A DNA stretch of 64,000 nt, from contig JAQWNJ010000014.1 of assembly GCA_029268695.1 (NCBI GenBank), forward strand, positions 64,751-128,750, read 5' to 3'. Every line of letters begins with the position of its first letter. Positions within the stretch are counted from its first letter, which is position 1. The notes under the pieces are model-generated. The model was not told the origin of the DNA. It ran no database searches and worked only from the letters and a program-made list of their open reading frames with translations. Shown piece after piece: positions 7,183-52,030 of the stretch. This stretch comes from Bacteroidia bacterium (GTDB lineage: Bacteria; Bacteroidota; Bacteroidia; NS11-12g; UBA9320). Both the position numbers and the translations under genes were made by a program.

Positions 7183-8217
7183 ATGAAGTATGCTTATTAT
7201 TTAATTTTTCTTTTATTAGTGACTTCTTGTAATGCCCAAATTGAATCTGACAATATGATAAATCAAGAAAAACCCAACACAACAGAATACAATAAACTAA
7301 CTGAAGCTGAAAAAAGAATTATTATTCGAAAAGGTACAGAGTACCCTAACACAGGAGAATATAATAAACACTATGAGGATGGAACATACATATGCAGACA
7401 ATGCAATCAACAACTTTATCAATCATCATCCAAATTCAACAGCAATTGTGGCTGGCCGAGTTTTGATGATGAAATAGACGGAGCTGTAAATCGAATCCTT
7501 GATGCTGACGGTCGAAGAACTGAGATTGTTTGCAGTAATTGTGCAGGACATCTTGGACACGTATTTATTGGAGAAAATTTTACAATAAAAAACACCCGTC
7601 ACTGTGTAAATAGTATTTCTATGCAATTCGTCCCAAAGGGTAAATCCATTCCAAAAATAATTACCTTAAGTGAAATTTCAGAATTAGATACCATAACATT
7701 TGGGGCAGGTTGCTTCTGGTGCGTTGAAGTACTTTTTCAGAAGCTTAAGGGTGTTTCTTATGTTGAAAGTGGCTATGCAGGTGGGAAAATAAAAAATCCT
7801 ACATACAAAATGGTTTGTCAGGGCAATACTGGTTCAGTTGAAGTCGCTCAGCTAATTTATGACCCAAAAATTATATCAGCTGAAACACTTATTGATATTT
7901 TCTTTCATGTCCATGATCCTACTACACTAAACAGACAAGGAAACGATGTTGGAGACCAATACCGTTCAGTTATCTTTTATCACAGTGCCCAACAAAAAGA
8001 AATTGCGAATAATGTACTTAATAGAATAGATTCTAGTAATTTATGGAACGAACCCATAGTCACCAAAGTAGAATCCATATATAACTACAGTAAAGCAGAA
8101 GATTATCATCAAAATTACTATAATAATAACTCATCAACTAATGGTTACTGTAATATGGTAATCAGACCAAAAGTAGCAAAGTTTAAAATTAAATATGCTG
8201 ATCTTATTAAGAAGTAA
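7183..8217 (+). CDS. msrAB: Bifunctional peptide-methionine sulfoxide reductase MsrB-MsrA with an N-terminal lipoprotein signal
   Basis: The MsrB zinc-ribbon and catalytic region are present (CRQCNQQLY...CGWPSF, RTEIVCSNCAGHLGHVF). The MsrA motif GAGCFWCVE follows. The N-terminus is LLLVTSC. Confidence 0.85.
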   Translation: MKYAYYLIFLLLVTSCNAQIESDNMINQEKPNTTEYNKLTEAEKRIIIRKGTEYPNTGEYNKHYEDGTYICRQCNQQLYQSSSKFNSNCGWPSFDDEIDGAVNRILDADGRRTEIVCSNCAGHLGHVFIGENFTIKNTRHCVNSISMQFVPKGKSIPKIITLSEISELDTITFGAGCFWCVEVLFQKLKGVSYVESGYAGGKIKNPTYKMVCQGNTGSVEVAQLIYDPKIISAETLIDIFFHVHDPTTLNRQGNDVGDQYRSVIFYHSAQQKEIANNVLNRIDSSNLWNEPIVTKVESIYNYSKAEDYHQNYYNNNSSTNGYCNMVIRPKVAKFKIKYADLIKK

Positions 8218-21201: not shown

Positions 21202-21303
21202 GATCGATTACAAATTTATTTAGAATTTGGATAATGCATTCATCGATTAATTATTCATCAAGTATAAGCATTGCATGAAGTTAAATATGATAATTTTGTG
21301 CTA

Positions 21304-22215
21304 ATGAATTTAAACAAACTTTTAGTATTTTTCTTTTTGTTGATTATTTTTAATGGTTGTTCAACAACTAAAAATGAAAATAAACCATTAACTATTGTCA
21401 CAACAACAGGAATATTGGGGGATTGTGTCGCTCAAATTATTGATGGTCAAGCTGAGGTGATTTCTATTATGGGAGCTGGAGTAGATCCACACTTATACAA
21501 AGCATCGCAAGGTGATATATCAAAACTATCTGACGCTGACATCATCGTTTATAATGGCTTGCATTTGGAAGGAAAGATGGCACAAATGCTCGAAAATTTC
21601 TCAAAATCAAAACCTGTTTTTGCGATTGGTAATTACATAAAAAAATCAGATTTAAAACGAGTAGATAATACATCTGATCTTGTTGATCCTCATGTTTGGT
21701 TTAGCCCTGATTTATGGCTTGAAGGTCTTAATGGTATCGCTAAAGAGTTGGAAAAACAAAATGGCCTTAATCGTATTTTAGAAAATTACCAAGACTATGC
21801 AACCAAAATTCAATCCACACAAATTAGGCTTCAGCAGCTTTTGGATGAAGGACTTGATTCAAGTCAACGAATCTTAATAACAAGTCATGATGCATTTGAA
21901 TATTTTGGAGATGCATTTAAATTTAAAGTGAGAGGTCTTCAAGGGATTTCGACCACTGCAGAATATGGCACTAAAGACATAAAAGATCTTACAGATTTTA
22001 TAATAGATAACAAGATTAAATCTGTATTTGTAGAAACAAGTGTTCCAAATAAAAATCTAGAAGCAGTAGTCGCAAGTGCTCAAGCAAGAGATTATAGCAT
22101 CCGTATTGGTGGGACACTGTATAGTGATGCTTTGGGAGAAAAAAACACCCCTGCTGGAACGTATGAAGGAATGTTAATTTCTAATGTTCAAACTATAATC
22201 AAAGGACTTAAATAA
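21304..22215 (+). CDS. Metal (Zn/Mn/Fe) ABC transporter substrate-binding lipoprotein, TroA/ZnuA cluster-9 family
   Basis: It has a lipoprotein signal (LIIFNGC) and ZnuA/TroA blocks (DPHLYKAS, DPHVWFSP, ITSHDAFEYFGDAF). A TTG at 21271 is an alternative start. Confidence 0.8.
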   Translation: MNLNKLLVFFFLLIIFNGCSTTKNENKPLTIVTTTGILGDCVAQIIDGQAEVISIMGAGVDPHLYKASQGDISKLSDADIIVYNGLHLEGKMAQMLENFSKSKPVFAIGNYIKKSDLKRVDNTSDLVDPHVWFSPDLWLEGLNGIAKELEKQNGLNRILENYQDYATKIQSTQIRLQQLLDEGLDSSQRILITSHDAFEYFGDAFKFKVRGLQGISTTAEYGTKDIKDLTDFIIDNKIKSVFVETSVPNKNLEAVVASAQARDYSIRIGGTLYSDALGEKNTPAGTYEGMLISNVQTIIKGLK

Positions 22216-22991
22216 TGGCTATCCCAATTATAGAGGCTCATAATCTAACTGTTCTTTATGGAAGAAAACCTGCCATTTGGAATATTGATTTTAAACTCCC
22301 TGAAGGTCAAGTAATTGGAATAATGGGTCCTAACGGAAGTGGCAAAAGTACACTACTTAAATCAATTATGGGCGTTGTTACACCCACTACGGGGTATACT
22401 AAAGTTTATGACCAGGAATTAAATCAAGTGCGTCATAAAGTTAGTTATGTGCCACAACGACAAGAAATAGACTGGGATTTCCCAGCAAGTGTTTGGGATA
22501 TTGTTTCAATGGGTCGGTTTCATGTTCGAGGATTGTTCAAAAGGCTTACAAGCGAGGATAATGACATCATTCAGGAAAGTCTGGAAAAAGTGAATATGCT
22601 TGGCTTTGCTAAAAGACAAATCAGCCAATTATCGGTAGGGCAACAACAACGGGTATTTCTAGCTAGAGCCATAGCTCAACAAGGGGAACTATTTTTAATG
22701 GACGAGCCATTTGCTGGGGTAGATATCGCAACTGAAGAAATGATTGTTGATCTTTTAAAAGAAATGAAAGGTCAGGGCAAAACACTCGTTATCGTTCACC
22801 ACGATTTACACACTGCCCAATCGTATTTTGATCATCTAGTTTTGATGAATACACGACTAGTTGCATGTGGTAAAACATCTGATGTTTTCACGGATCAGAT
22901 TTTAACAGATACGTATGGTGGCAAATTAACTACGATATCAAAAATTAGTCAAGAGTTAGAAAATAAGGAATTCCCAATTAGACATCAATGA
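22215..22991 (+). CDS. Metal ABC transporter ATP-binding protein
   Basis: It has a Walker A (GPNGSGKST), the signature LSVGQQQRV, and a Walker B (LFLMDEPFAGVD). It overlaps the neighbouring genes. Confidence 0.85.
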   Translation: MAIPIIEAHNLTVLYGRKPAIWNIDFKLPEGQVIGIMGPNGSGKSTLLKSIMGVVTPTTGYTKVYDQELNQVRHKVSYVPQRQEIDWDFPASVWDIVSMGRFHVRGLFKRLTSEDNDIIQESLEKVNMLGFAKRQISQLSVGQQQRVFLARAIAQQGELFLMDEPFAGVDIATEEMIVDLLKEMKGQGKTLVIVHHDLHTAQSYFDHLVLMNTRLVACGKTSDVFTDQILTDTYGGKLTTISKISQELENKEFPIRHQ

Positions 22992-24268
22992 GTTTTTGGC
23001 AAAATATACCTAGTTATTTCTCAAGTGAATATTATACCTTTTGGGTGGTTAGTATTGGTGCTGGAATAATTTGTTTTGGAGCTGGCATTGTGGGTACATT
23101 TTCTTATCTCAGAAAACGAGCTTTACTAGGTGACGTTATTTCTCATGCAGTTTTGCCAGGTGTTGCTATTTCATTCATGCTTACTGGAGTTAAAAACCCT
23201 CTTTATTTTTTAATAGGAGCTACAACCTCTGGGATTCTATCTATTTGGCTTGTAGATTATATTCATAGTAAGTCGAAATTAAAACCAGATACTATTCTGG
23301 CTTTGACATTAAGTGTTTTCTTCGGAATCGGCATTGTGCTTCTGACCAAAATACAACACAGTGGCAATGCTGCACAAAGTGGATTGGATAGCTTTTTATT
23401 TGGGAAGGCTGCAAGCATGACACTACAAGATGTAATAACATTCTCAGTTATTGCACTAATCAATACTTTATGTATCGCAGTTTTTTTAAGAGCTTTTAGT
23501 ATGATTAGTTTTGACGAAGAATATGCGAAAAGTTTAGGTTTTAATATTAAAATTATCAAATCATTTTTAGCCCTTCTAACCGTTATTACGGTTGCTATTG
23601 GTATACAATCCGTAGGTATTGTGCTTATGGCAGCCTTATTAATTACTCCTGCAAGTGGTGCCCGATTTCTTACAAACTCTATAAAAAAGATGCTAATTTA
23701 TGCAGGTATCTTCGCATTATTGAGTGGGTTCACAGGTGTAATTATCAGCTCTAGCGGAACAGCAATGCCAACTGGACCTTGGATTGTCGTTGTATTATCA
23801 TCCTTCACAATATTTGCTATCTTCTTTGGAAAAGAAAAAGGAGTTATTGCTCGAATGAGAATTAGGAGATCAAACAATCTTAAAATCAATAATGAAAACA
23901 CACTTAAGAAATTATACAAGTTATCAGAAGAAAGGAAAGAAAGTATTCATGTAGATCAATTATCTGACATTCAATCCTCCGCCCAATTAAAAACAACATT
24001 AAAACGATTAGAAAAAAAGCAAATACTTAGTCAAGTTAAAGGAACCATTATACTTAATGAGAAAGGCAAAATTGCAGCACGAGAAGTAATTCGTAAACAT
24101 CGCCTTTGGGAAATCTACTTGTCTAAATATTTTCAACTGGATAAGGATCATCTGCATGATGATGCCGAAGGGATTGAACATGTCATTACACCCGAAATTG
24201 AAAAACATCTTATAACATTATTAGATAGACCCGAAAAAGATCCACACCAAAGTGAGATCCCATACTAA
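22988..24268 (+). CDS. ABC-3 metal transporter permease with a C-terminal fused DtxR/MntR-family metalloregulator domain
   Basis: About 290 aa of ABC-3 permease with 8-9 TM helices is followed by a DtxR-like HTH and metal/dimerisation domain (LKKLYKLSEE..., RKHRLWEIYL, HDDAEGIEHVITPEIEKHL, DPHQSEIPY). Confidence 0.8.
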   Translation: MSFWQNIPSYFSSEYYTFWVVSIGAGIICFGAGIVGTFSYLRKRALLGDVISHAVLPGVAISFMLTGVKNPLYFLIGATTSGILSIWLVDYIHSKSKLKPDTILALTLSVFFGIGIVLLTKIQHSGNAAQSGLDSFLFGKAASMTLQDVITFSVIALINTLCIAVFLRAFSMISFDEEYAKSLGFNIKIIKSFLALLTVITVAIGIQSVGIVLMAALLITPASGARFLTNSIKKMLIYAGIFALLSGFTGVIISSSGTAMPTGPWIVVVLSSFTIFAIFFGKEKGVIARMRIRRSNNLKINNENTLKKLYKLSEERKESIHVDQLSDIQSSAQLKTTLKRLEKKQILSQVKGTIILNEKGKIAAREVIRKHRLWEIYLSKYFQLDKDHLHDDAEGIEHVITPEIEKHLITLLDRPEKDPHQSEIPY

Positions 24269-33933: not shown

Positions 33934-33974
33934 TACGGATATATCTAGTAAATTTGCTTTCAAATTTTAAGCCC

Positions 33975-34727
33975 ATGAAAAAAATATTTACATTATTACT
34001 GATCGCTCTAACTAGTCTTTCATTTGCTCAAGTAGATTGGGCTATTAAGTCCATTATAGAGCCAACTGAACTTGAGTCTAATACTTCCTCAGGAACACCA
34101 ATTCCTGTTAATTTGGAATGCGAGAATCGAGGCACATCGACCATTTTTACTGGAGATACTGTGATATACAATTTATTGATGATTGACTTAAAACTTAGTC
34201 AAGTTATTGCTCAAATCCCAAACGGCTTCTACTATCAGGTTATCACAGAAGATATACCAGTTGGTGGGACTTTTAATATTATAAATGAAAATATATCACT
34301 TGGCTCATATCCATTTGAATCAAGAGATGTAAGATTAGGTGCAACTTCATACATTATGGATAGAACATCTCCTTACCTTGATTCTGATTCAAGTAATAAC
34401 TCTACATTCGTTGACATAACTTGGTGGAACCCACAACGATGGAATGTATCTGTAGAAGATGTAAAATATAATTCTGATAACATTGCCGTATATCCCAATC
34501 CAGCAAATGATCAGTTGAACGTTCGCTTACTGTTTGCAGAAAGTAATGCAGTTAACATCGAATTATTTGACCTTACTGGTAAAGTAGTAGCATCGCCAAA
34601 TAGGAATCAGGCTATTTCTCCTAATCAATATACCATTGATGTGGCAGACTTGAGTAAAGGAGTTTACATCCTTAAAGTTACTAACGGGACAAAAGTGAGT
34701 ACGTCCAAAGTGACTATTTCTCATTAA
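33975..34727 (+). CDS. Small secreted protein with a T9SS type-A C-terminal sorting domain (Por_Secre_tail)
   Basis: It has a signal peptide. The C-terminus VYPNPANDQLNV...IELFDLTGKVV...GVYILKVTNGTKVSTSKVTISH is the canonical TIGR04183-type CTD. Confidence 0.7.
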   Translation: MKKIFTLLLIALTSLSFAQVDWAIKSIIEPTELESNTSSGTPIPVNLECENRGTSTIFTGDTVIYNLLMIDLKLSQVIAQIPNGFYYQVITEDIPVGGTFNIINENISLGSYPFESRDVRLGATSYIMDRTSPYLDSDSSNNSTFVDITWWNPQRWNVSVEDVKYNSDNIAVYPNPANDQLNVRLLFAESNAVNIELFDLTGKVVASPNRNQAISPNQYTIDVADLSKGVYILKVTNGTKVSTSKVTISH

Positions 34728-38578: not shown

Positions 38579-39466
38579 TTGAGAACCAATAAATACATAT
38601 CTCTCAGTAAAATTTTAATGATTATTATCATTAATGTTATTTATGGCTCTGCGTTTTCTCAAGAATTGAATTTGATAGACGATAACGAACCTGAGGGAAG
38701 AACGTATACCATAGCAACATTCAAAACTAATCGAATAGTTAATGGGCATAGTATTGAAACGGTGGCTAAAAATGAGCTCGACTTCAAAATATCCCATCGA
38801 TTTGGACTGCTTCACAATGGATTCTATGATTTATTCGGATTAGATCAAGCCTCTATGAGAATGGGAGGAGACTTTGGAATCACGGATAACCTAAATGTTG
38901 GCTTAGGAAGAAGTACGGTCGATAAAACATATGATGGCTTTGTTAAATACAAGTTTCTCAAACAAAGTATTGGATCAAAATCTTGCCCTGTAACAGGTGT
39001 TGTTATGAGCCATATAGGAATCAATACTCTGAAATGGACGCACCCTGAACGAAATAATTTATTTTCTAGTAGATTACACTTCACCCATCAATTATTATTG
39101 GCTCGTAAATTCTCCAAAAACTTTAGTGCTCAAATAACTCCAACGCTAACCCATCTGAACATTGTAGAAAATACTGCCTTTTCTAATGATGTAATTTCTA
39201 TTGGCGTAGGAGCCAGGCAAAAACTATTTACACGTGTTTCTGTTAATTTAGAGTATTATTATGTTTTCCCTGACCAAATAAAACCAAATAGCACTAATTC
39301 GCTATCAATGGGTTTTGACATCGAAACTGGAGGCCATGTTTTTCAGCTTTTTTTTACAAACTCATATGCCCCTTTTGAAAAAGGATTCATAACTGACACC
39401 AAAGGTAAATGGATCGACGGAGACGTTCGATTTGGTTTTAACATTGCAAGAATATTTGATTTTTAG
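38579..39466 (+). CDS. Hypothetical outer-membrane beta-barrel protein
   Basis: It has a signal peptide (TTG start retains the K/R n-region), alternating amphipathic beta strands, and a C-terminal RIFDF (aromatic terminus). Confidence 0.4.
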   Translation: MRTNKYISLSKILMIIIINVIYGSAFSQELNLIDDNEPEGRTYTIATFKTNRIVNGHSIETVAKNELDFKISHRFGLLHNGFYDLFGLDQASMRMGGDFGITDNLNVGLGRSTVDKTYDGFVKYKFLKQSIGSKSCPVTGVVMSHIGINTLKWTHPERNNLFSSRLHFTHQLLLARKFSKNFSAQITPTLTHLNIVENTAFSNDVISIGVGARQKLFTRVSVNLEYYYVFPDQIKPNSTNSLSMGFDIETGGHVFQLFFTNSYAPFEKGFITDTKGKWIDGDVRFGFNIARIFDF

Positions 39467-39488: not shown

Positions 39489-42044
39489 ATGAAAACATCA
39501 TCATATACGTACCAATTTTTTATTTCTAAAGTTCGTGCTCTAGCTGTTATATTGACGCTATTGGTTTGTACTTTTTCCTCTAATGCCTCCCATGTAGTCG
39601 GTGGAGAATTGTATTATAATCGAGTGCTGAATCAATTTGGTAATGTTCGGTATGAAATAGTCTTCAAAATTTATTTTGACTGTCAGAATGCTAATCCTGG
39701 AACAATTGATCGAGATGGAAATCTTGCATACATTGGTGTGTTCGATGCTGTTACCAATGCACGCAAACAGACCATATCACTAAATAATGGTGTTAGAAAA
39801 GTCGTCAATTCGGTAAACTATGAATGCGTTAAAGAACCTTCTGGTGTTTGTGTAGTTCAATATACCTACAAAAAAACAGTATTCCTCAATCCTGGCACAA
39901 ATGGGCTTATTCTTTCTCATCAACTTTGTTGCAGAAATGCAATTACAGATAATGTAAACGATGCCGGAAACACAGGGTCAACCTATTGGAGTTATATCCC
40001 TCCTTCAAGCACTAACAATTCAAGTCCAAGATTCAAAAATATACCTCCAACATATGTATGTATCAACGCTCCTCTGACATTAGACTATAGTGCTCAAGAT
40101 CCAGATGGCGATTCTCTGGTTTATGAATTTTATACGCCTTTCTTGGGTGGATCAGCTACAGATCCAAAACCAGAAAATCCTAGCCCTCCTCCATATGCGT
40201 TATTAACATGGAATCCTTCTTTCTCTTCCAAAAATCAAGTTACAGGGAGCCCTTCTAGTTTCATTAATAGGCAAACAGGAGAATATACACTCACTCCCAC
40301 AGCTAAAGGAACTTATGCCGTTGGTGTTCGAGTACTTGAATATCGAAATGGGAGCCTTCTTGGCTCTACATTAAGCGATTACCAATTTACAGTCATTGAT
40401 TGTCAATTTGATGTAATTGCTAATTTCAACATACCAGGAGGGACAGCAGTTGGCGGTTCATATGCATTTGAATGTGGGGATACTGCTCGTTTCAACAACA
40501 TAAGTAACTGGAATAAAGTGAAAACACCCAAAGTAAAGTTCTTTTGGGATTTTGGAGATCCAACTACCAAGAATGATACACTAACAACATTCAACCTAAA
40601 TGATAAAGTTGAATATGTATATCCTGGAAATGGTGATTATACTATTAGTTTGAACATCATCTCTTCTATATGCAACGATACGTACAAATATGGTGTTCGG
40701 ATTCGATCCACTAAAGATGTGAACTTAGGGCCAGATCGTATATTCTGTAATGATTTCTCTATCCTACTTGACACAAAAGCACCAGATGCTATCTCCGTAG
40801 ATTGGAATACTGGAGCTACAGGAAGTAGAATAACAGTTAGCGATACTGGGACATATATACCAACGGTATCCTATGGAAAATGCGTTTATAAAGATACCGT
40901 TCAATTAACATATGATAAAGTTCCTACATTGAGATTGCCAAATGATACTTTGGAATGTGATACACTCATTGATGTAATTTTAGATGCTGGCATATCTGGC
41001 CTAAGCTATTCTTGGAATACAACCCCTCCTACATTATCCCAAAAGCTAAATGTTAATTCTGCCGGGGATTACATAGTCACCGCTATGAACCTAAATTGTA
41101 TAATTAAAGATACCATTCGGGTATGGCAAGCAACTCATCCCAAAGTGGAAAACGCATTTTATTGCAATGAATTTAACCATTTAGTTGACCTAAATGGTAT
41201 AGAAGAAGCTGAATATTTATGGGACAATGGAAGTTCTACTTCAGCTGTGACATACACAAGTCCTGGTAAACGCTGGATTCAATTAACTCAAAGACACTGC
41301 ATCAACTCCGACACGTTCATCATCGACAATTCTGGCGTTGATCTTGAATTGGGTGAAGACCAACACTTTTGTGATTTCATCGCTACTACATTAGACGCTG
41401 GTTCTGATGGTATAAAATATTCTTGGAATAATGGTGATACCACACAAACAATCAATGTGAGCACTCCAGGAAAGTATCGTGTTCTCGTTGAGAATAAAGA
41501 TGGGTGTACCAACTCAGACTCTGTTTTGGTAAGTGTGTCCAACTCCCCCACTTTCAATCTGGGTAGTGATACAACCATTTGTATCAACTCCCCTACAACC
41601 ATATCAGCCCCATCTGGATTTGTAAAATATTTATGGAATGATGAAAGTAGTGGGCAAAGCATTACAACCATTTTGGAAGGACTCTACAAAGTTACGGTTA
41701 CAGATAATTTAGGCTGTATAGGCTCAGATAGTCTATTTATTACAGTAGATGAAAATGCTCTACCCAATGAAATGTACTTCCCTAATGCATTTACCCCAAA
41801 TGGGGATAACTTAAATGAACTTTTCCCATATCAAATTGATGTCGCTCAGCCAGCATACTACATTATCATATACTCTAGGTGGGGAGAAAAAGTGTTCGAC
41901 TCAAGAACTTCATTAACAGATAATTGGGATGGAACATATCAAGGGAAAAAAGTTCCAAATGAAACCTTCTTTTACTATGTTAACTACAGAGGTTGTGATG
42001 GGAATACTCGAAATTCTAAAGGTACCGTCCAGCCCATTTATTGA
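39489..42044 (+). CDS. Large secreted adhesin-like protein with a T9SS type-B (gliding-motility-associated) C-terminal domain
   Basis: It has a signal peptide. The C-terminal ~90 aa (FPNAFTPNGDNLNELF...IYSRWGEKVF...NWDGTYQGKKVPNETFFYYVNY) match the TIGR04131-type CTD. The body has Ig/PKD-like beta repeats. Confidence 0.75.
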   Translation: MKTSSYTYQFFISKVRALAVILTLLVCTFSSNASHVVGGELYYNRVLNQFGNVRYEIVFKIYFDCQNANPGTIDRDGNLAYIGVFDAVTNARKQTISLNNGVRKVVNSVNYECVKEPSGVCVVQYTYKKTVFLNPGTNGLILSHQLCCRNAITDNVNDAGNTGSTYWSYIPPSSTNNSSPRFKNIPPTYVCINAPLTLDYSAQDPDGDSLVYEFYTPFLGGSATDPKPENPSPPPYALLTWNPSFSSKNQVTGSPSSFINRQTGEYTLTPTAKGTYAVGVRVLEYRNGSLLGSTLSDYQFTVIDCQFDVIANFNIPGGTAVGGSYAFECGDTARFNNISNWNKVKTPKVKFFWDFGDPTTKNDTLTTFNLNDKVEYVYPGNGDYTISLNIISSICNDTYKYGVRIRSTKDVNLGPDRIFCNDFSILLDTKAPDAISVDWNTGATGSRITVSDTGTYIPTVSYGKCVYKDTVQLTYDKVPTLRLPNDTLECDTLIDVILDAGISGLSYSWNTTPPTLSQKLNVNSAGDYIVTAMNLNCIIKDTIRVWQATHPKVENAFYCNEFNHLVDLNGIEEAEYLWDNGSSTSAVTYTSPGKRWIQLTQRHCINSDTFIIDNSGVDLELGEDQHFCDFIATTLDAGSDGIKYSWNNGDTTQTINVSTPGKYRVLVENKDGCTNSDSVLVSVSNSPTFNLGSDTTICINSPTTISAPSGFVKYLWNDESSGQSITTILEGLYKVTVTDNLGCIGSDSLFITVDENALPNEMYFPNAFTPNGDNLNELFPYQIDVAQPAYYIIIYSRWGEKVFDSRTSLTDNWDGTYQGKKVPNETFFYYVNYRGCDGNTRNSKGTVQPIY

Positions 42045-43838: not shown

Positions 43839-44303
43839 ATGCAAGTCAATAAAGCAATCCAGCTATTTGAAAAATCAATTCAAAAACACCTAAATATAAA
43901 ACCTGAAGAGATTCGCTGTAAAAATGACGGTGAATATGTAATTGTTAGGGGTAAATCTACTGAGGTTTATGTTGATATATGGCAACCTGAACAAACCAGT
44001 CAATGGCAATATTTTGATCGTGAAAAGATTGCCGGAATATTCCAAATTGTTTCCCCTATTTGTGAATATCCTCATGAAGAACATTTAGGGCAATTTATGG
44101 AAGAATTAGCTCATCTTAACTTTCATCTTTTTTCTGCAAAATTCGTAGCCAATGCTCAACAAAAAATTATAAGCATACAATACAAACGTATTTTGGAAGG
44201 GTTAAATGAAACTGAAATTATTGAACCTATTGAGGCCGTTGGTTATTATGCTGAAAACTTAAAAGAATATCTTGCCGAAAAATACCACGTTAAAAAAATT
44301 TAA
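43839..44303 (+). CDS. Hypothetical cytoplasmic protein (possibly YbjN-like)
   Basis: It is 154 aa with no signal peptide and weak resemblance only. Confidence 0.25.
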   Translation: MQVNKAIQLFEKSIQKHLNIKPEEIRCKNDGEYVIVRGKSTEVYVDIWQPEQTSQWQYFDREKIAGIFQIVSPICEYPHEEHLGQFMEELAHLNFHLFSAKFVANAQQKIISIQYKRILEGLNETEIIEPIEAVGYYAENLKEYLAEKYHVKKI

Positions 44304-44358
44304 CTGATTTACGGACAACTATTTTTATTATAGTAACATCTAATAAGTAATCCATGCG

Positions 44359-44901
44359 ATGAGCAATGATAAACATAATGACATATCATTAATAAAAGCT
44401 TGCAGCAATGGAGATCATAACGCTTTTAATAAAATATATAATAAGTACGCTGGACTAATGTATAGTATCTGTCTAAGATATATGAATTCACATAATGATG
44501 CCCAAGATGCTTTGCAGGAAGGGTTTATCAAAGTGTTTAATAAAATATCATCTTATTCATTTTCTGGGAGTTTTGAAGGTTGGATGAAAAAAATATTTAT
44601 TAATACGAGCATAGAGCTTATACGAAAGAAAAAATATCACCAAGATATCAATGACATAAGAGACTCTGAATTCAAGACAACATCTAAAATAAATGTTGGG
44701 TCTTTGGATGCTAAGAAAATGATTGATTTGATCCAAAAACTTCCTCAGGGTTATCGAACAGTATTCAACATGTATGTCATCGATGGGTATTCCCACAAAG
44801 AGATTTCTGAAATGCTTGATATTTCTGAGAGCACCAGTAAAACACAGTTATTTAAGGCACGTAAACAGCTTCAAATAAAATTAAAAGGATGGTTTGAATA
44901 A
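44359..44901 (+). CDS. RNA polymerase ECF-type sigma-70 factor
   Basis: Region 2 is present (YNKYAGLMYSICLRYMNSHNDAQDALQEGFIKVFNKI), as is a region 4 HTH (GYSHKEISEMLDISESTSKTQLFKARKQL). Confidence 0.85.
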   Translation: MSNDKHNDISLIKACSNGDHNAFNKIYNKYAGLMYSICLRYMNSHNDAQDALQEGFIKVFNKISSYSFSGSFEGWMKKIFINTSIELIRKKKYHQDINDIRDSEFKTTSKINVGSLDAKKMIDLIQKLPQGYRTVFNMYVIDGYSHKEISEMLDISESTSKTQLFKARKQLQIKLKGWFE

Positions 44902-46118
44902 TGAAAAAATTCAAAAACATATCAGAATTTGAAAGACTACTCAAAGACCAACTTGAGAATCATGCTACTCCACCACCATCATCAATTATAGAAAATTTTG
45001 ACCTTTCATCCATAAAGCAATCTAATGCAAAAACTTCAAAAATTATTGAATTAATTAAAAATCCAATTCAAGCAATTAAGATGGTCTCAATTATTGGGGC
45101 CTCTGCTACCATCCTATTTTTTGCAGTAAAAAATAAAAACTCCCCAATAAAAGATCTAAACGATACTATATCTGAGCATTCTTTCAGAACCATTGCAGAC
45201 TCTACTGTAAATATGCAAGACACTGAAAGCATTGAAAAAGATCTAAACGACATCCCAAAAGAGTTAAAAACATTCAAAAATGGTACGACAAACTCTTTAA
45301 TTCAGACATTACAGACAAAAAGTACTCAGGAAACTCAAATGTCTTTTAAAATTGTTGAGGACGAATCTGACAAGTCAATTAATACCGGGGAAATACCCGA
45401 AAATTTAGATGTATCTAATTTTAATCCATGCATCGGTGAAATAATCACCTTGAAAAGCAGGACCAAGGGAGACTGGTACATTAATAATCAAATATTTTCT
45501 AGAAATGCTGACCTTATTGAATATAAAGCAGATACTGATCAACCTGTTTCAATAGTTTTTACAAACGAGCATGGCGAAACTCATGAAGTGATTGAAGGCT
45601 TGAAAACTAACTATCAAATAATCACTAAAAAAATCGATTTTAACACATTCTCATTCTCAATAAACAATCAAAACATCCTTGCTAACTGGTATCTTGGTGA
45701 CACATTAATAGCTAAAAATACAAACAAATGCCAACTTAAAGAAAAACTAGTAGGTGAGTACGTAATTAAAACCGTACCCATAAATATTCCTTGTGCTGAA
45801 AAAAGTAAAACGACATTTCAAGTCAAAAGCGAAGGATCTATTAAGTTTTTCAATGTATTTACACCTAACGGAGATGGTACTAACGATGAATACCCGGTAG
45901 AAATAAGTAACTATGAAAATTATAAGATTCTCATTTTTAACCAAAGGAATGGCCAAATTATATTTACATCCGACAACCCTGAGAATCGATGGAACGGGAG
46001 CATAAATAATATTGGTGAAAATTGCCCTCCTGGAGAATATCTAGCTAAAATTAATTACACCTTAAAAGGAGAAAAACCTCAGACAAAGAATATAAAATTC
46101 ACGTTAATACGCCCCTAA
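44901..46118 (+). CDS. Anti-sigma-like single-pass membrane protein carrying a T9SS type-B C-terminal domain
   Basis: Its ATG overlaps the sigma stop (TAATGA). The first ~58 aa are hydrophilic, one TM follows (IKMVSIIGASATILFFAV, nt ~45078-45128), then a low-complexity S/T/N linker and a beta domain. The C-terminus is FFNVFTPNGDGTNDEY...ILIFNQRNGQIIF...RWNGS...CPPGEYLAKINY...KFTLIRP, a type-B CTD. Confidence 0.55.
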   Translation: MKKFKNISEFERLLKDQLENHATPPPSSIIENFDLSSIKQSNAKTSKIIELIKNPIQAIKMVSIIGASATILFFAVKNKNSPIKDLNDTISEHSFRTIADSTVNMQDTESIEKDLNDIPKELKTFKNGTTNSLIQTLQTKSTQETQMSFKIVEDESDKSINTGEIPENLDVSNFNPCIGEIITLKSRTKGDWYINNQIFSRNADLIEYKADTDQPVSIVFTNEHGETHEVIEGLKTNYQIITKKIDFNTFSFSINNQNILANWYLGDTLIAKNTNKCQLKEKLVGEYVIKTVPINIPCAEKSKTTFQVKSEGSIKFFNVFTPNGDGTNDEYPVEISNYENYKILIFNQRNGQIIFTSDNPENRWNGSINNIGENCPPGEYLAKINYTLKGEKPQTKNIKFTLIRP

Positions 46119-46183
46119 ATTTGAATATTATGACGAAGCAAACTAACTTTACAAACTTTTTTATGAATTATAATAATCTCATT

Positions 46184-51976: not shown

Positions 51977-52002
51977 TCTGTAATTCTATATCACATTAAA
52001 AA

Positions 52003-52030
52003 ACCATTTGCTAAGGCGAATGGTTTTTTA
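52003..52030 (+). terminator. Rho-independent terminator after the giant adhesin gene
   Basis: CCATTTGC-TAAG-GCGAATGG with one G-U pair is followed by TTTTTTA. Confidence 0.5.

Follow-up and report, generated by a model that had tools for sequence, protein, structure and literature searches.

An extracytoplasmic function sigma factor operon of a marine Bacteroidia bacterium encodes a membrane-anchored protein with a type IX secretion sorting domain, a candidate anti-sigma factor

RESULTS

Organization of the locus

The stretch of DNA analysed here (referred to as the window) comprises 64,000 nucleotides of a Bacteroidia bacterium genome (assembly GCA_029268695.1, contig JAQWNJ010000014.1, positions 64,751 to 128,750 of the forward strand), and the gene under study is the open reading frame (ORF) at 44901..46118 (+) of the window, which runs from ATG to TAA and encodes a protein of 405 aa. 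This protein is present in public records as MDG2042013.1, from a marine 'Bacteroidia bacterium' metagenome-assembled genome (MAG), and its gene lies between the gene for an extracytoplasmic function (ECF) sigma factor (MDG2042012.1) and a gene for a giant type IX secretion system (T9SS) cargo protein; the coordinates of all three genes and their features are collected in Table 1. The sigma factor is matched by Sigma70_r2 (E = 1e-13), Sigma70_r4_2 (1e-17) and TIGR02937 (3e-27), and its nearest solved relatives are SigW (5wuq, 2e-19), RpoE (1or7) and AlgU (6in7, deposited as sigma-H factor), each of which is held by a single-pass anti-sigma factor with its N terminus in the cytoplasm (N-in) and is released via regulated proteolysis. 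The TAA stop codon of the sigma gene overlaps the ATG of the MDG2042013.1 gene (TAATG at 44899-44903). The cargo gene begins with a TTG at 46121, 2 nt past the MDG2042013.1 stop codon, and has an in-frame ATG at 46130; its product contains six PKD_4 domains (6e-45) and a CHU_C domain (1e-18). The terminator-like hairpin that lies beyond the cargo gene has no comparable counterpart on the + strand anywhere from the sigma start to the cargo stop.

An ECF-type promoter motif precedes the sigma gene. Each of the 13 complete loci of this kind that we have collected (see below) has a sequence of the form (G/A)CAAC-N16-NC(A/G/T)TC(T/A) whose distance upstream of the sigma start codon is 40-60 nt, and three of them have the canonical ECF CGTC -10 box. 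Over the 518 kb of these 13 loci, counting both strands, the motif has 28 matches, 13 of which fall within the thirteen 90-nt intervals upstream of the sigma genes and 15 elsewhere. In one lineage (locus L093) a second copy, GCAACT-N15-TCGTCT, occupies 8102-8128 (+) in the 121-nt gap between the gene corresponding to MDG2042013.1 and the cargo gene and, because it is directly upstream of the latter, the cargo in that lineage seems to have a sigma-dependent promoter of its own. Since the ECF motif stands upstream of the sigma gene in every locus, and L093 has this additional copy before its cargo gene, the operon looks self-regulated and the giant cargo looks to be a direct target of the sigma factor. 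In our reading the genes for the sigma factor, MDG2042013.1 and the 1951-aa cargo make up one self-regulated operon, extending from the promoter motif at 44315-44341 to the terminator-like hairpin at 51997-52030.

The C-terminal sorting domain

Two curated models match the extreme C terminus of MDG2042013.1 above their cutoffs, namely PF13585 (CHU_C; residues 314-394, E = 1.8e-15, 57.2 bits against a curated cutoff of 27) and TIGR04131 ('T9SS type B sorting domain'; residues 315-404 of 405, E = 1.2e-11, 44.6 bits against a cutoff of 35). For the two undoubted cargo proteins of the window the scores are 54.5 and 67.5 bits, so that the C-terminal domain (CTD) of MDG2042013.1 scores within their range and is, by this measure, as good as theirs. 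In an alignment of 141 family members W364 is invariant, and P322, D325, G326, N328, D329, G378, Y380 and Y386 are each at least 90% conserved. On these grounds the CTD is, at the level of sequence, a true member of CHU_C/TIGR04131. Its similarity to the CTD of its own cargo in the window is unusually high (47-48% identity, rank 2 of 120), this pair being the closest in its set.

Start codon and membrane topology

Hydropathy analysis reveals one strong apolar stretch in MDG2042013.1, the top 19-mer being residues 58-76 (Kyte-Doolittle 2.02) and the runner-up anywhere in the protein scoring 0.54. The region before it opens with a motif, MKKFKNISEFExLLKxxLxxHxxPPPxxxW, which is found at the start of all 22 full-length homologues, down to 30% identity. 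Residues M1, K2, F4, I7, E9, F10, E11, L18 and P26 are invariant in a 14-sequence alignment, P26 and K60 are at least 90% conserved in the 141-sequence alignment, and the N-terminal ~30 residues as a whole are the most conserved region apart from the CTD. Among the 141 members the cytoplasmic part has a median length of 56 residues (range 33-87); a near-invariant Lys precedes the apolar core, which has a median length of 18 residues (range 16-21) and ends in Tyr/Asn with, according to a heuristic test, no small residues at -3/-1 and hence no signal-peptidase site after it. The flank before the transmembrane (TM) segment is Lys-rich and that after it acidic, with a net charge of +1.66 in the 15 residues before the segment and of -1.03 after it, the former exceeding the latter in 90% of members, as the positive-inside rule would have it for an N-in single-pass protein with a short cytoplasmic domain. 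Small residues, Gly among them, are frequent in the TM segment. The apolar segment of MDG2042013.1 begins only at residue 61, after the conserved hydrophilic domain, and no cleavable Sec signal peptide is recognised by these heuristics, which therefore predict an uncleaved N-in/C-out signal anchor. We also considered a signal peptide that is extended and cleaved, as in autotransporters, and reject it on account of the length of the core, the lack of a cleavage site and the coupling to the sigma gene. In a subgroup of the family (P0172, P0174, P0213, P0229, P0233 and P0245; 457-488 aa) the TM segment lies at about residue 82-88, and the longer cytoplasmic domain carries a second motif-like stretch (…LDQLN..LQFD…) after the N-terminal motif.

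A preliminary description of this ORF, made by a model from the DNA sequence without database searches, had pointed to the paradox of a signal-anchor protein that carries a T9SS sorting domain. The ORF coordinates and sequence that it quoted agree exactly with ours, the CTD that it recognised is borne out by both curated models, and the paradox is real in that an uncleaved N-in signal anchor and a T9SS type B CTD do occur in one protein. It placed about 58 residues ahead of the hydrophobic segment and described them as charged, whereas they are hydrophilic with 9 K/R and 7 D/E. Its suggestion that the true start might be an internal Met, which would make the protein ordinary cargo, fails because orthologues keep the N-terminal motif and do not keep the Met, position 61 being I/L/V/A in homologues; the residue in question is, moreover, Met61 and not Met60 as numbered there (I59-K60-M61).

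The periplasmic part and the size of the family

An AlphaFold2 (AF2) model of MDG2042013.1 has a helix at residues 7-19 (pLDDT about 65), disorder from residue 28 to residue 164 and three confident beta-sandwiches at residues 166-405 (pLDDT >90). With this model Foldseek returned generic tandem Ig/FN3 folds only. The two immunoglobulin (Ig)-like domains that precede the CTD are absent from a short form of ~295 aa (homologues P0023-P0033), in which a Pro/Ala/Lys-rich linker joins the N-terminal motif and TM segment to the CTD and nothing else is present; of the periplasmic domains, the CTD alone is thus constant and, in the short form, it is the sole folded one. From the end of the TM segment to the start of the CTD there are at least 115 residues (5th percentile 126, median 245; 141 members). 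Throughout the family the residues E/N/S/T/K/Q/P abound in the linker, which contains neither Cys nor Trp. As a disordered chain of at least 115 residues would measure ~40 nm when fully extended, by our own estimate, the minimum length suggests that the linker needs to extend as far as the outer membrane.

When 1.84 billion cluster representatives (50% identity clusters) were searched with a profile, the family proved to have at least 123 clusters at E<=1e-30, and the best 150 matches are nearly all of 280-480 aa and aligned from residue 1. A variant of the N-terminal motif opens all 144 representatives of at least 250 aa, 134 of which have a single strong TM segment, starting at residues 40-69 in 133. 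CHU_C was detected in 125 of the 126 members scanned for domains and PKD_4 in 21, at the position of the Ig-like domains; no Pfam family covered the N terminus of these 126. Mean column identity in the 141-sequence alignment is 16%. Because 22 full-length homologues and more than 120 further cluster representatives share the N terminus, the TM segment and the CTD, a chance association of the three is excluded. A separate search with a 42-residue N-terminal profile against 5.8 billion word-indexed sequences gave one match only, the query being too short for such a search.

Conservation of the three-gene module

Thirteen independent complete loci were reached by four different routes: homologues of MDG2042013.1 itself (L001, L002/3, L004); a CTD-only genome scan, in effect a random sample of CHU_C proteins (L022, L015, L062); homologues of the 154-aa protein encoded upstream (L085/86, L087, L088); and divergent representatives of the family (L090, L091/92, L093/94). 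The genome-contig scan was dominated by the generic CTD pattern PNGDG[TK]ND and was used as a background set. In all 13 loci an ECF sigma gene is followed by the gene for a CHU_C protein with the N-terminal motif and TM segment, and this in turn by a gene for CHU_C cargo of 1088-2140 aa. The first two genes overlap or sit no more than 3 nt apart in 13/13, the start codon overlapping the sigma stop codon in most, and in a 14th locus, truncated on a 2-kb contig, a fragment encoding sigma region 4 overlaps the start of the CTD protein gene. A hidden Markov model of the N-terminal 42 residues identified 18 ORFs in the 1.39 Mb of collected loci; all 18 have the CTD, and a sigma gene is directly upstream of 17, the remaining ORF being at a contig end.

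The sigma factors of the 12 other loci are 42-69% identical to the copy in the window, and the cargo proteins of the close clade are 44-87% identical to the cargo of the window, whereas the identity of the intervening protein is 25-41% over its full length in four of the five close-clade loci. Judged by these lower identities, the anti-sigma-like protein is the fastest-evolving part of the module.

Two further observations were made among the collected loci. At 6418-15236 of L095, a CHU_C protein with an unrelated N terminus (MDWKETIRNNINEGEFSPQKDW...), one TM segment and a PKD domain (P0035) is encoded 4 nt after an ECF sigma gene and is followed by a 122-aa ORF and then by a SprB-repeat/PKD protein of more than 2557 aa; sigma-paired, membrane-anchored CTD proteins may thus have arisen more than once. 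Bacteroidota-type CHU_C genes also occur in MAGs labelled Comamonadaceae, Burkholderiales, Bordetella parapertussis or Bifidobacterium (L015, i.e. CAYRZQ010000043.1, L053, L069 and L041), contigs that are probably binning or labelling errors in public records.

Table 1. Features of the operon and of its upstream neighbour (positions in the window)
Feature	Position	Strand	Basis or remark
Upstream neighbour, 154-aa cytoplasmic protein, YbjN / type III secretion system (T3SS) class I chaperone fold	43839..44303	+	AF2 and Foldseek
ECF-type promoter motif ACAAC-N16-ACATCT (-35/-10 like)	44315..44341	+	18 nt upstream of sigma ATG
ECF sigma factor gene, 180 aa	44359..44901	+	Sigma70_r2, Sigma70_r4_2, TIGR02937
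Cytoplasmic N-terminal domain of MDG2042013.1, aa 1-60, putative sigma-binding region	44901..45080	+	Conserved motif
Single TM segment, aa 61-76, MVSIIGASATILFFAV, predicted N-in/C-out signal anchor	45081..45128	+	Hydropathy, charge pattern
Disordered polar linker, aa 77-165	45129..45395	+	AF2 pLDDT <50
Two Ig-like beta-sandwich domains, aa ~166-310	45396..45830	+	AF2 pLDDT >90
T9SS type B CTD and stop codon, aa 311-405	45831..46118	+	PF13585 and TIGR04131
Giant T9SS type B cargo gene, 1951 aa	46121..51976	+	PKD and CHU_C; last operon gene
Terminator-like hairpin, 15 pairs and T run	51997..52030	+	21 nt past cargo stop

Neighbouring genes

The 154-aa protein encoded directly upstream of the ECF promoter gave a confident AF2 model (pLDDT 91), for which Foldseek returned 2plg, ExsC (3kxy), SycH, SicP, CesT and YbjN (6vu7) with TM-scores of 0.6-0.76. 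Its 59 homologues, which NCBI in some cases calls 'YbjN domain-containing protein', show 45-91% identity, a degree of conservation well above that of MDG2042013.1. Each of the three homologues whose surroundings were looked up lies beside the same module of sigma factor, CTD protein and cargo; the protein is restricted to the closer clade and is absent from L022, L015 and L062. ExsC is the partner-switching protein of the secretion-coupled ExsCED cascade, and by analogy this YbjN/ExsC-like neighbour might add a cytoplasmic partner-switching step.

The module is otherwise surrounded by housekeeping genes in the window, in which several other genes deserve mention. Another type B cargo gene, at 39489-42044 (+; 851 aa, PKD and CHU_C), has a DUF5777 'membrane bound beta barrel' gene directly upstream, at 38579-39466 (+). 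This pairing recurs in L004, L087 and L088, and the barrel may serve that cargo as a carrier or anchor not so far recognised as such, replacing PorP/SprF. The 257-aa protein encoded at 33954-34727 (+) has a type A T9SS sorting domain (Por_Secre_tail, 1e-18); since both CTD classes are represented, this organism has a T9SS, even though the window itself lacks genes for the machinery. At 22988-24268 (+) an ABC-3 metal-transporter permease is fused at its C terminus to a metal-binding/dimerisation domain of the iron-dependent-repressor (DtxR) type (PF02742, 4e-23), and the gene adjoins that for a ZnuA-like binding protein (21271-22215).

DISCUSSION

The translational coupling of MDG2042013.1 to an ECF sigma factor, together with a gene position and a topology that are typical of membrane anti-sigma factors, leads us to conclude that it is very probably the inner-membrane, single-pass anti-sigma partner of the sigma factor encoded upstream. 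That its CTD engages the T9SS or a carrier we consider somewhat probable, while the further proposition that such engagement switches the sigma factor on rather than off has a slightly less than even claim. For the combined reading, in which an anti-sigma factor presents a T9SS signal on a periplasm-spanning tail and thereby couples sigma release to engagement by the T9SS or a carrier, we judge the balance to be level; sigma binding, proteolysis and T9SS engagement are steps that we infer. The preliminary description recognised the conflict between topology and CTD and missed the operon context of sigma and cargo genes; its interpretation is partly supported. Its two other explanations, namely that the extracytoplasmic domain is released by regulated proteolysis or that the CTD tethers the protein to the T9SS, are plausible and fit a gene that is coupled to an ECF sigma gene and directly upstream of type B cargo.

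Our working model runs as follows. The N-terminal 60 residues of MDG2042013.1 would hold the sigma factor in the cytoplasm and the one TM helix would anchor the protein in the inner membrane, from which the linker of at least 115 residues would carry zero to two Ig/PKD domains and the CTD across the periplasm. There the CTD would be recognised, like a cargo CTD, by the T9SS translocon and a PorP/SprF-type carrier. The T9SS energy chain has been proposed to drag carrier-bound CTDs off the translocon (Lauber et al., PMC10994853); because of the inner-membrane anchor, a motor-driven pull on the carrier-bound CTD could not export MDG2042013.1 and would strain or expose the linker instead. Regulated proteolysis would follow, with a site-1 cut and then an intramembrane cut in the Gly-rich TM segment, and the freed sigma factor would transcribe the operon including the giant cargo gene, so that the very large surface protein would be made only when a functional T9SS or an unoccupied carrier is available. 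Carriers of type B cargo are reported to be in short supply, to be required in stoichiometric amounts and not to be recycled (Paillat et al., PMC12618676) and the cargo is roughly 2000 aa, for which reasons the sensing of carrier or machine availability would have a physiological rationale. That T9SS motor pull on an inner-membrane-anchored CTD triggers destruction of the anti-sigma factor, as a secretion-competence checkpoint for giant type B adhesins, is a tentative proposal that we regard as possible rather than probable.

Several results weigh against the reading of MDG2042013.1 as a T9SS-sensing anti-sigma factor. Its N terminus has no Pfam or NCBIfam match at E<=0.1 and no PDB sequence match (PDB sequence searches with the whole family and with the N terminus gave nothing meaningful), AF2 confidence for this part is only moderate, and no known anti-sigma domain (class I anti-sigma domain, zf-HC2, RskA, RseA_N and similar) could be recognised in it; for this reason we have not filed the protein under a known anti-sigma domain family, and any sigma-binding motif in the N terminus would have to be very short (class II-like) or of a kind not yet described. 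The lack of a zinc HxxxCxxC motif, stated in the preliminary description and seen by us also, is no argument against an anti-sigma role, as many membrane anti-sigma factors, e.g. RseA, have none. The window contains no gene for a PorP/SprF-like protein or for other T9SS machinery, and none adjoins the module at any of the loci; type B cargo whose carriers are unlinked ('orphan' cargo) is known (PMC12618676). The type B secretion signals reported span 150-235 residues, compared with only about 100 folded residues in the short form of the family (PMC12618676). Across the 13 loci the CTD of the MDG2042013.1-type protein ranks anywhere from 2/120 to 110/120 in similarity to that of its own cargo, giving no general signal of co-evolution. 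Finally, the direction of regulation and the proteases are matters that we purely infer.

The absence of a linked carrier or T9SS gene and the small size of the short form would suit an anti-sigma factor that has borrowed the CTD fold as a periplasmic sensor or protein-binding domain (for unsecreted cargo or a ligand, for example) and never engages the T9SS; Ig-like sandwiches are also common as sensor domains. This is unlikely, though by no means negligible, given that the CHU_C/TIGR04131 score is of cargo grade (57 bits against 54 and 67 in the window), that the hallmark residues are near-invariant in 141 members while the rest diverges to 16-30% identity, that the domain is always at the extreme C terminus and that a gene for giant type B cargo accompanies the module in every case. 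A T9SS-engaged anti-sigma factor could also work by the opposite logic, its CTD being bound by the T9SS or carrier and the anti-sigma factor thereby protected, so that sigma is freed when the machine is absent, blocked or saturated, as an envelope-stress or back-up response. RpoE, SigW and AlgU, the nearest solved relatives of the sigma factor, are envelope-stress sigma factors, and TonB-dependent transducers are reported to shield their anti-sigma factor from proteolysis when there is no signal (PMC11637429). We nevertheless think the protective arrangement quite unlikely, since the only conserved member of the regulon is a cargo of 1088-2140 aa, more of which under a block would worsen periplasmic jamming, and since the module has no linked gene for a chaperone or a protease.

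Alternatively, MDG2042013.1 might be no regulator at all but an inner-membrane-tethered escort or tether for the giant cargo, e.g. from Sec to the T9SS, that merely shares an operon with the sigma factor. Its gene is directly upstream of the giant cargo gene in 13/13 loci, its linker is long enough to span the periplasm and its N terminus has no recognised anti-sigma domain, all of which speaks for an escort. An escort would, however, have no need of the short cytoplasmic N terminus, the best conserved part outside the CTD, nor would it account for the overlap of its start codon with the sigma stop codon in most loci or for the almost one-to-one pairing of sigma genes and CTD proteins (17/18 ORFs with the N-terminal motif in 1.39 Mb), and we hold this function to be very unlikely. 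Hardly credible is the view that MDG2042013.1 is ordinary T9SS cargo, made from the internal Met or with an extended, cleaved signal peptide. The positive-inside orientation would suit a signal peptide too, but it is Met1 and the N-terminal motif that are conserved and not Met61, a start at Met61 would leave no charged n-region, the core of 16-21 residues ends in Tyr/Asn without small residues at -3/-1, and the position in the sigma operon is conserved.

How Bacteroidota match the output of giant T9SS cargo to the capacity of the machine and of its non-recycled carriers is largely unknown, and the regulation that has been described (PorXY-SigP, PorA) concerns machine genes. The position of the MDG2042013.1 gene in a conserved operon, between the genes for a sigma factor and a giant secreted protein, indicates that it probably ties production of the surface protein to the state of the secretion machine, and the widespread operon of sigma factor, CTD-bearing putative anti-sigma factor and giant cargo offers a concrete circuit for feedback from secretion to transcription. 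ECF sigma/anti-sigma signalling is well known, but the proposed use of a secretion signal as the sensor is unprecedented and the short putative sigma-binding motif is probably new; both would extend the known range of ECF signalling. No description of an anti-sigma factor with a T9SS CTD was found in published full texts (open-access papers). If the proposal is true, MDG2042013.1 would, as a natural T9SS 'substrate', be the first to lack a signal peptide, and it would be the equivalent in the T9SS of both FlgM and FecR. There is a gain for annotation also, as members of the family are now labelled, for example, 'T9SS type B sorting domain-containing protein'.

Comparison with known systems

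Type B cargo proteins, SprB and its relatives (PMC12618676, PMC9143113), have a CTD of the same CHU_C/TIGR04131 family, the motifs of which are kept in MDG2042013.1, but they are served by PorP/SprF carriers, whereas MDG2042013.1 lacks a cleavable Sec signal peptide, is predicted to be anchored in the inner membrane with its N-terminal domain in the cytoplasm and has no adjacent carrier gene. All T9SS effectors have been stated to have a Sec signal peptide (PMC12618676), and the family described here challenges the textbook view that every CTD protein is Sec-exported cargo.

The pairs RseA/sigma-E, RsiW/SigW and MucA/AlgU resemble the present one in that the gene for the anti-sigma factor comes directly after that for the ECF sigma factor in a self-regulated operon, in the N-in topology and in the short cytoplasmic sigma-binding part (putative in MDG2042013.1), and it is their sigma factors that the sigma factor of the window most resembles. 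The N terminus of MDG2042013.1, however, matches none of their anti-sigma domains, and its periplasmic part is a long linker with a secretion signal rather than a domain for sensing by RseB or a PDZ protease. FecA/FecR/FecI resembles our proposal in that a sigma regulator in the inner membrane spans the periplasm to contact an outer-membrane machine that runs on the proton-motive force, and in that the signal passes by force and a cleavage cascade (PMC12036975). The machinery is different, the proposed partner of MDG2042013.1 being the T9SS translocon or carrier and the motor GldLM rather than ExbBD-TonB; MDG2042013.1 contains no FecR (PF04773) or DUF4974 domain, and no TonB-dependent receptor gene is adjacent in any locus.

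FlgM is a soluble anti-sigma factor that controls a sigma-28-type factor and is exported whole through the flagellar T3SS. Like MDG2042013.1 as we propose it, FlgM bears the export signal of the very machine whose late substrates it controls, and the inhibitor is cleared once the machine works. The two are alike in their logic alone, for MDG2042013.1 is membrane-anchored rather than soluble and exported whole, has an ECF sigma factor rather than one of the sigma-28 type as its partner and carries an outer-membrane T9SS signal. The only CTD protein that we found to be implicated in signalling is PorA, which acts in the PorXY-SigP pathway of Porphyromonas gingivalis (PMC7712824), so that there, as proposed for MDG2042013.1, a protein with a CTD contributes to a signalling route whose end point is a T9SS-linked ECF sigma factor. 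PorA has a signal peptide and is secreted as normal cargo, acts upstream of a two-component system and controls genes for T9SS components, whereas in the operon described here the CTD is on the putative anti-sigma factor itself and the proposed target gene is that of the cargo.

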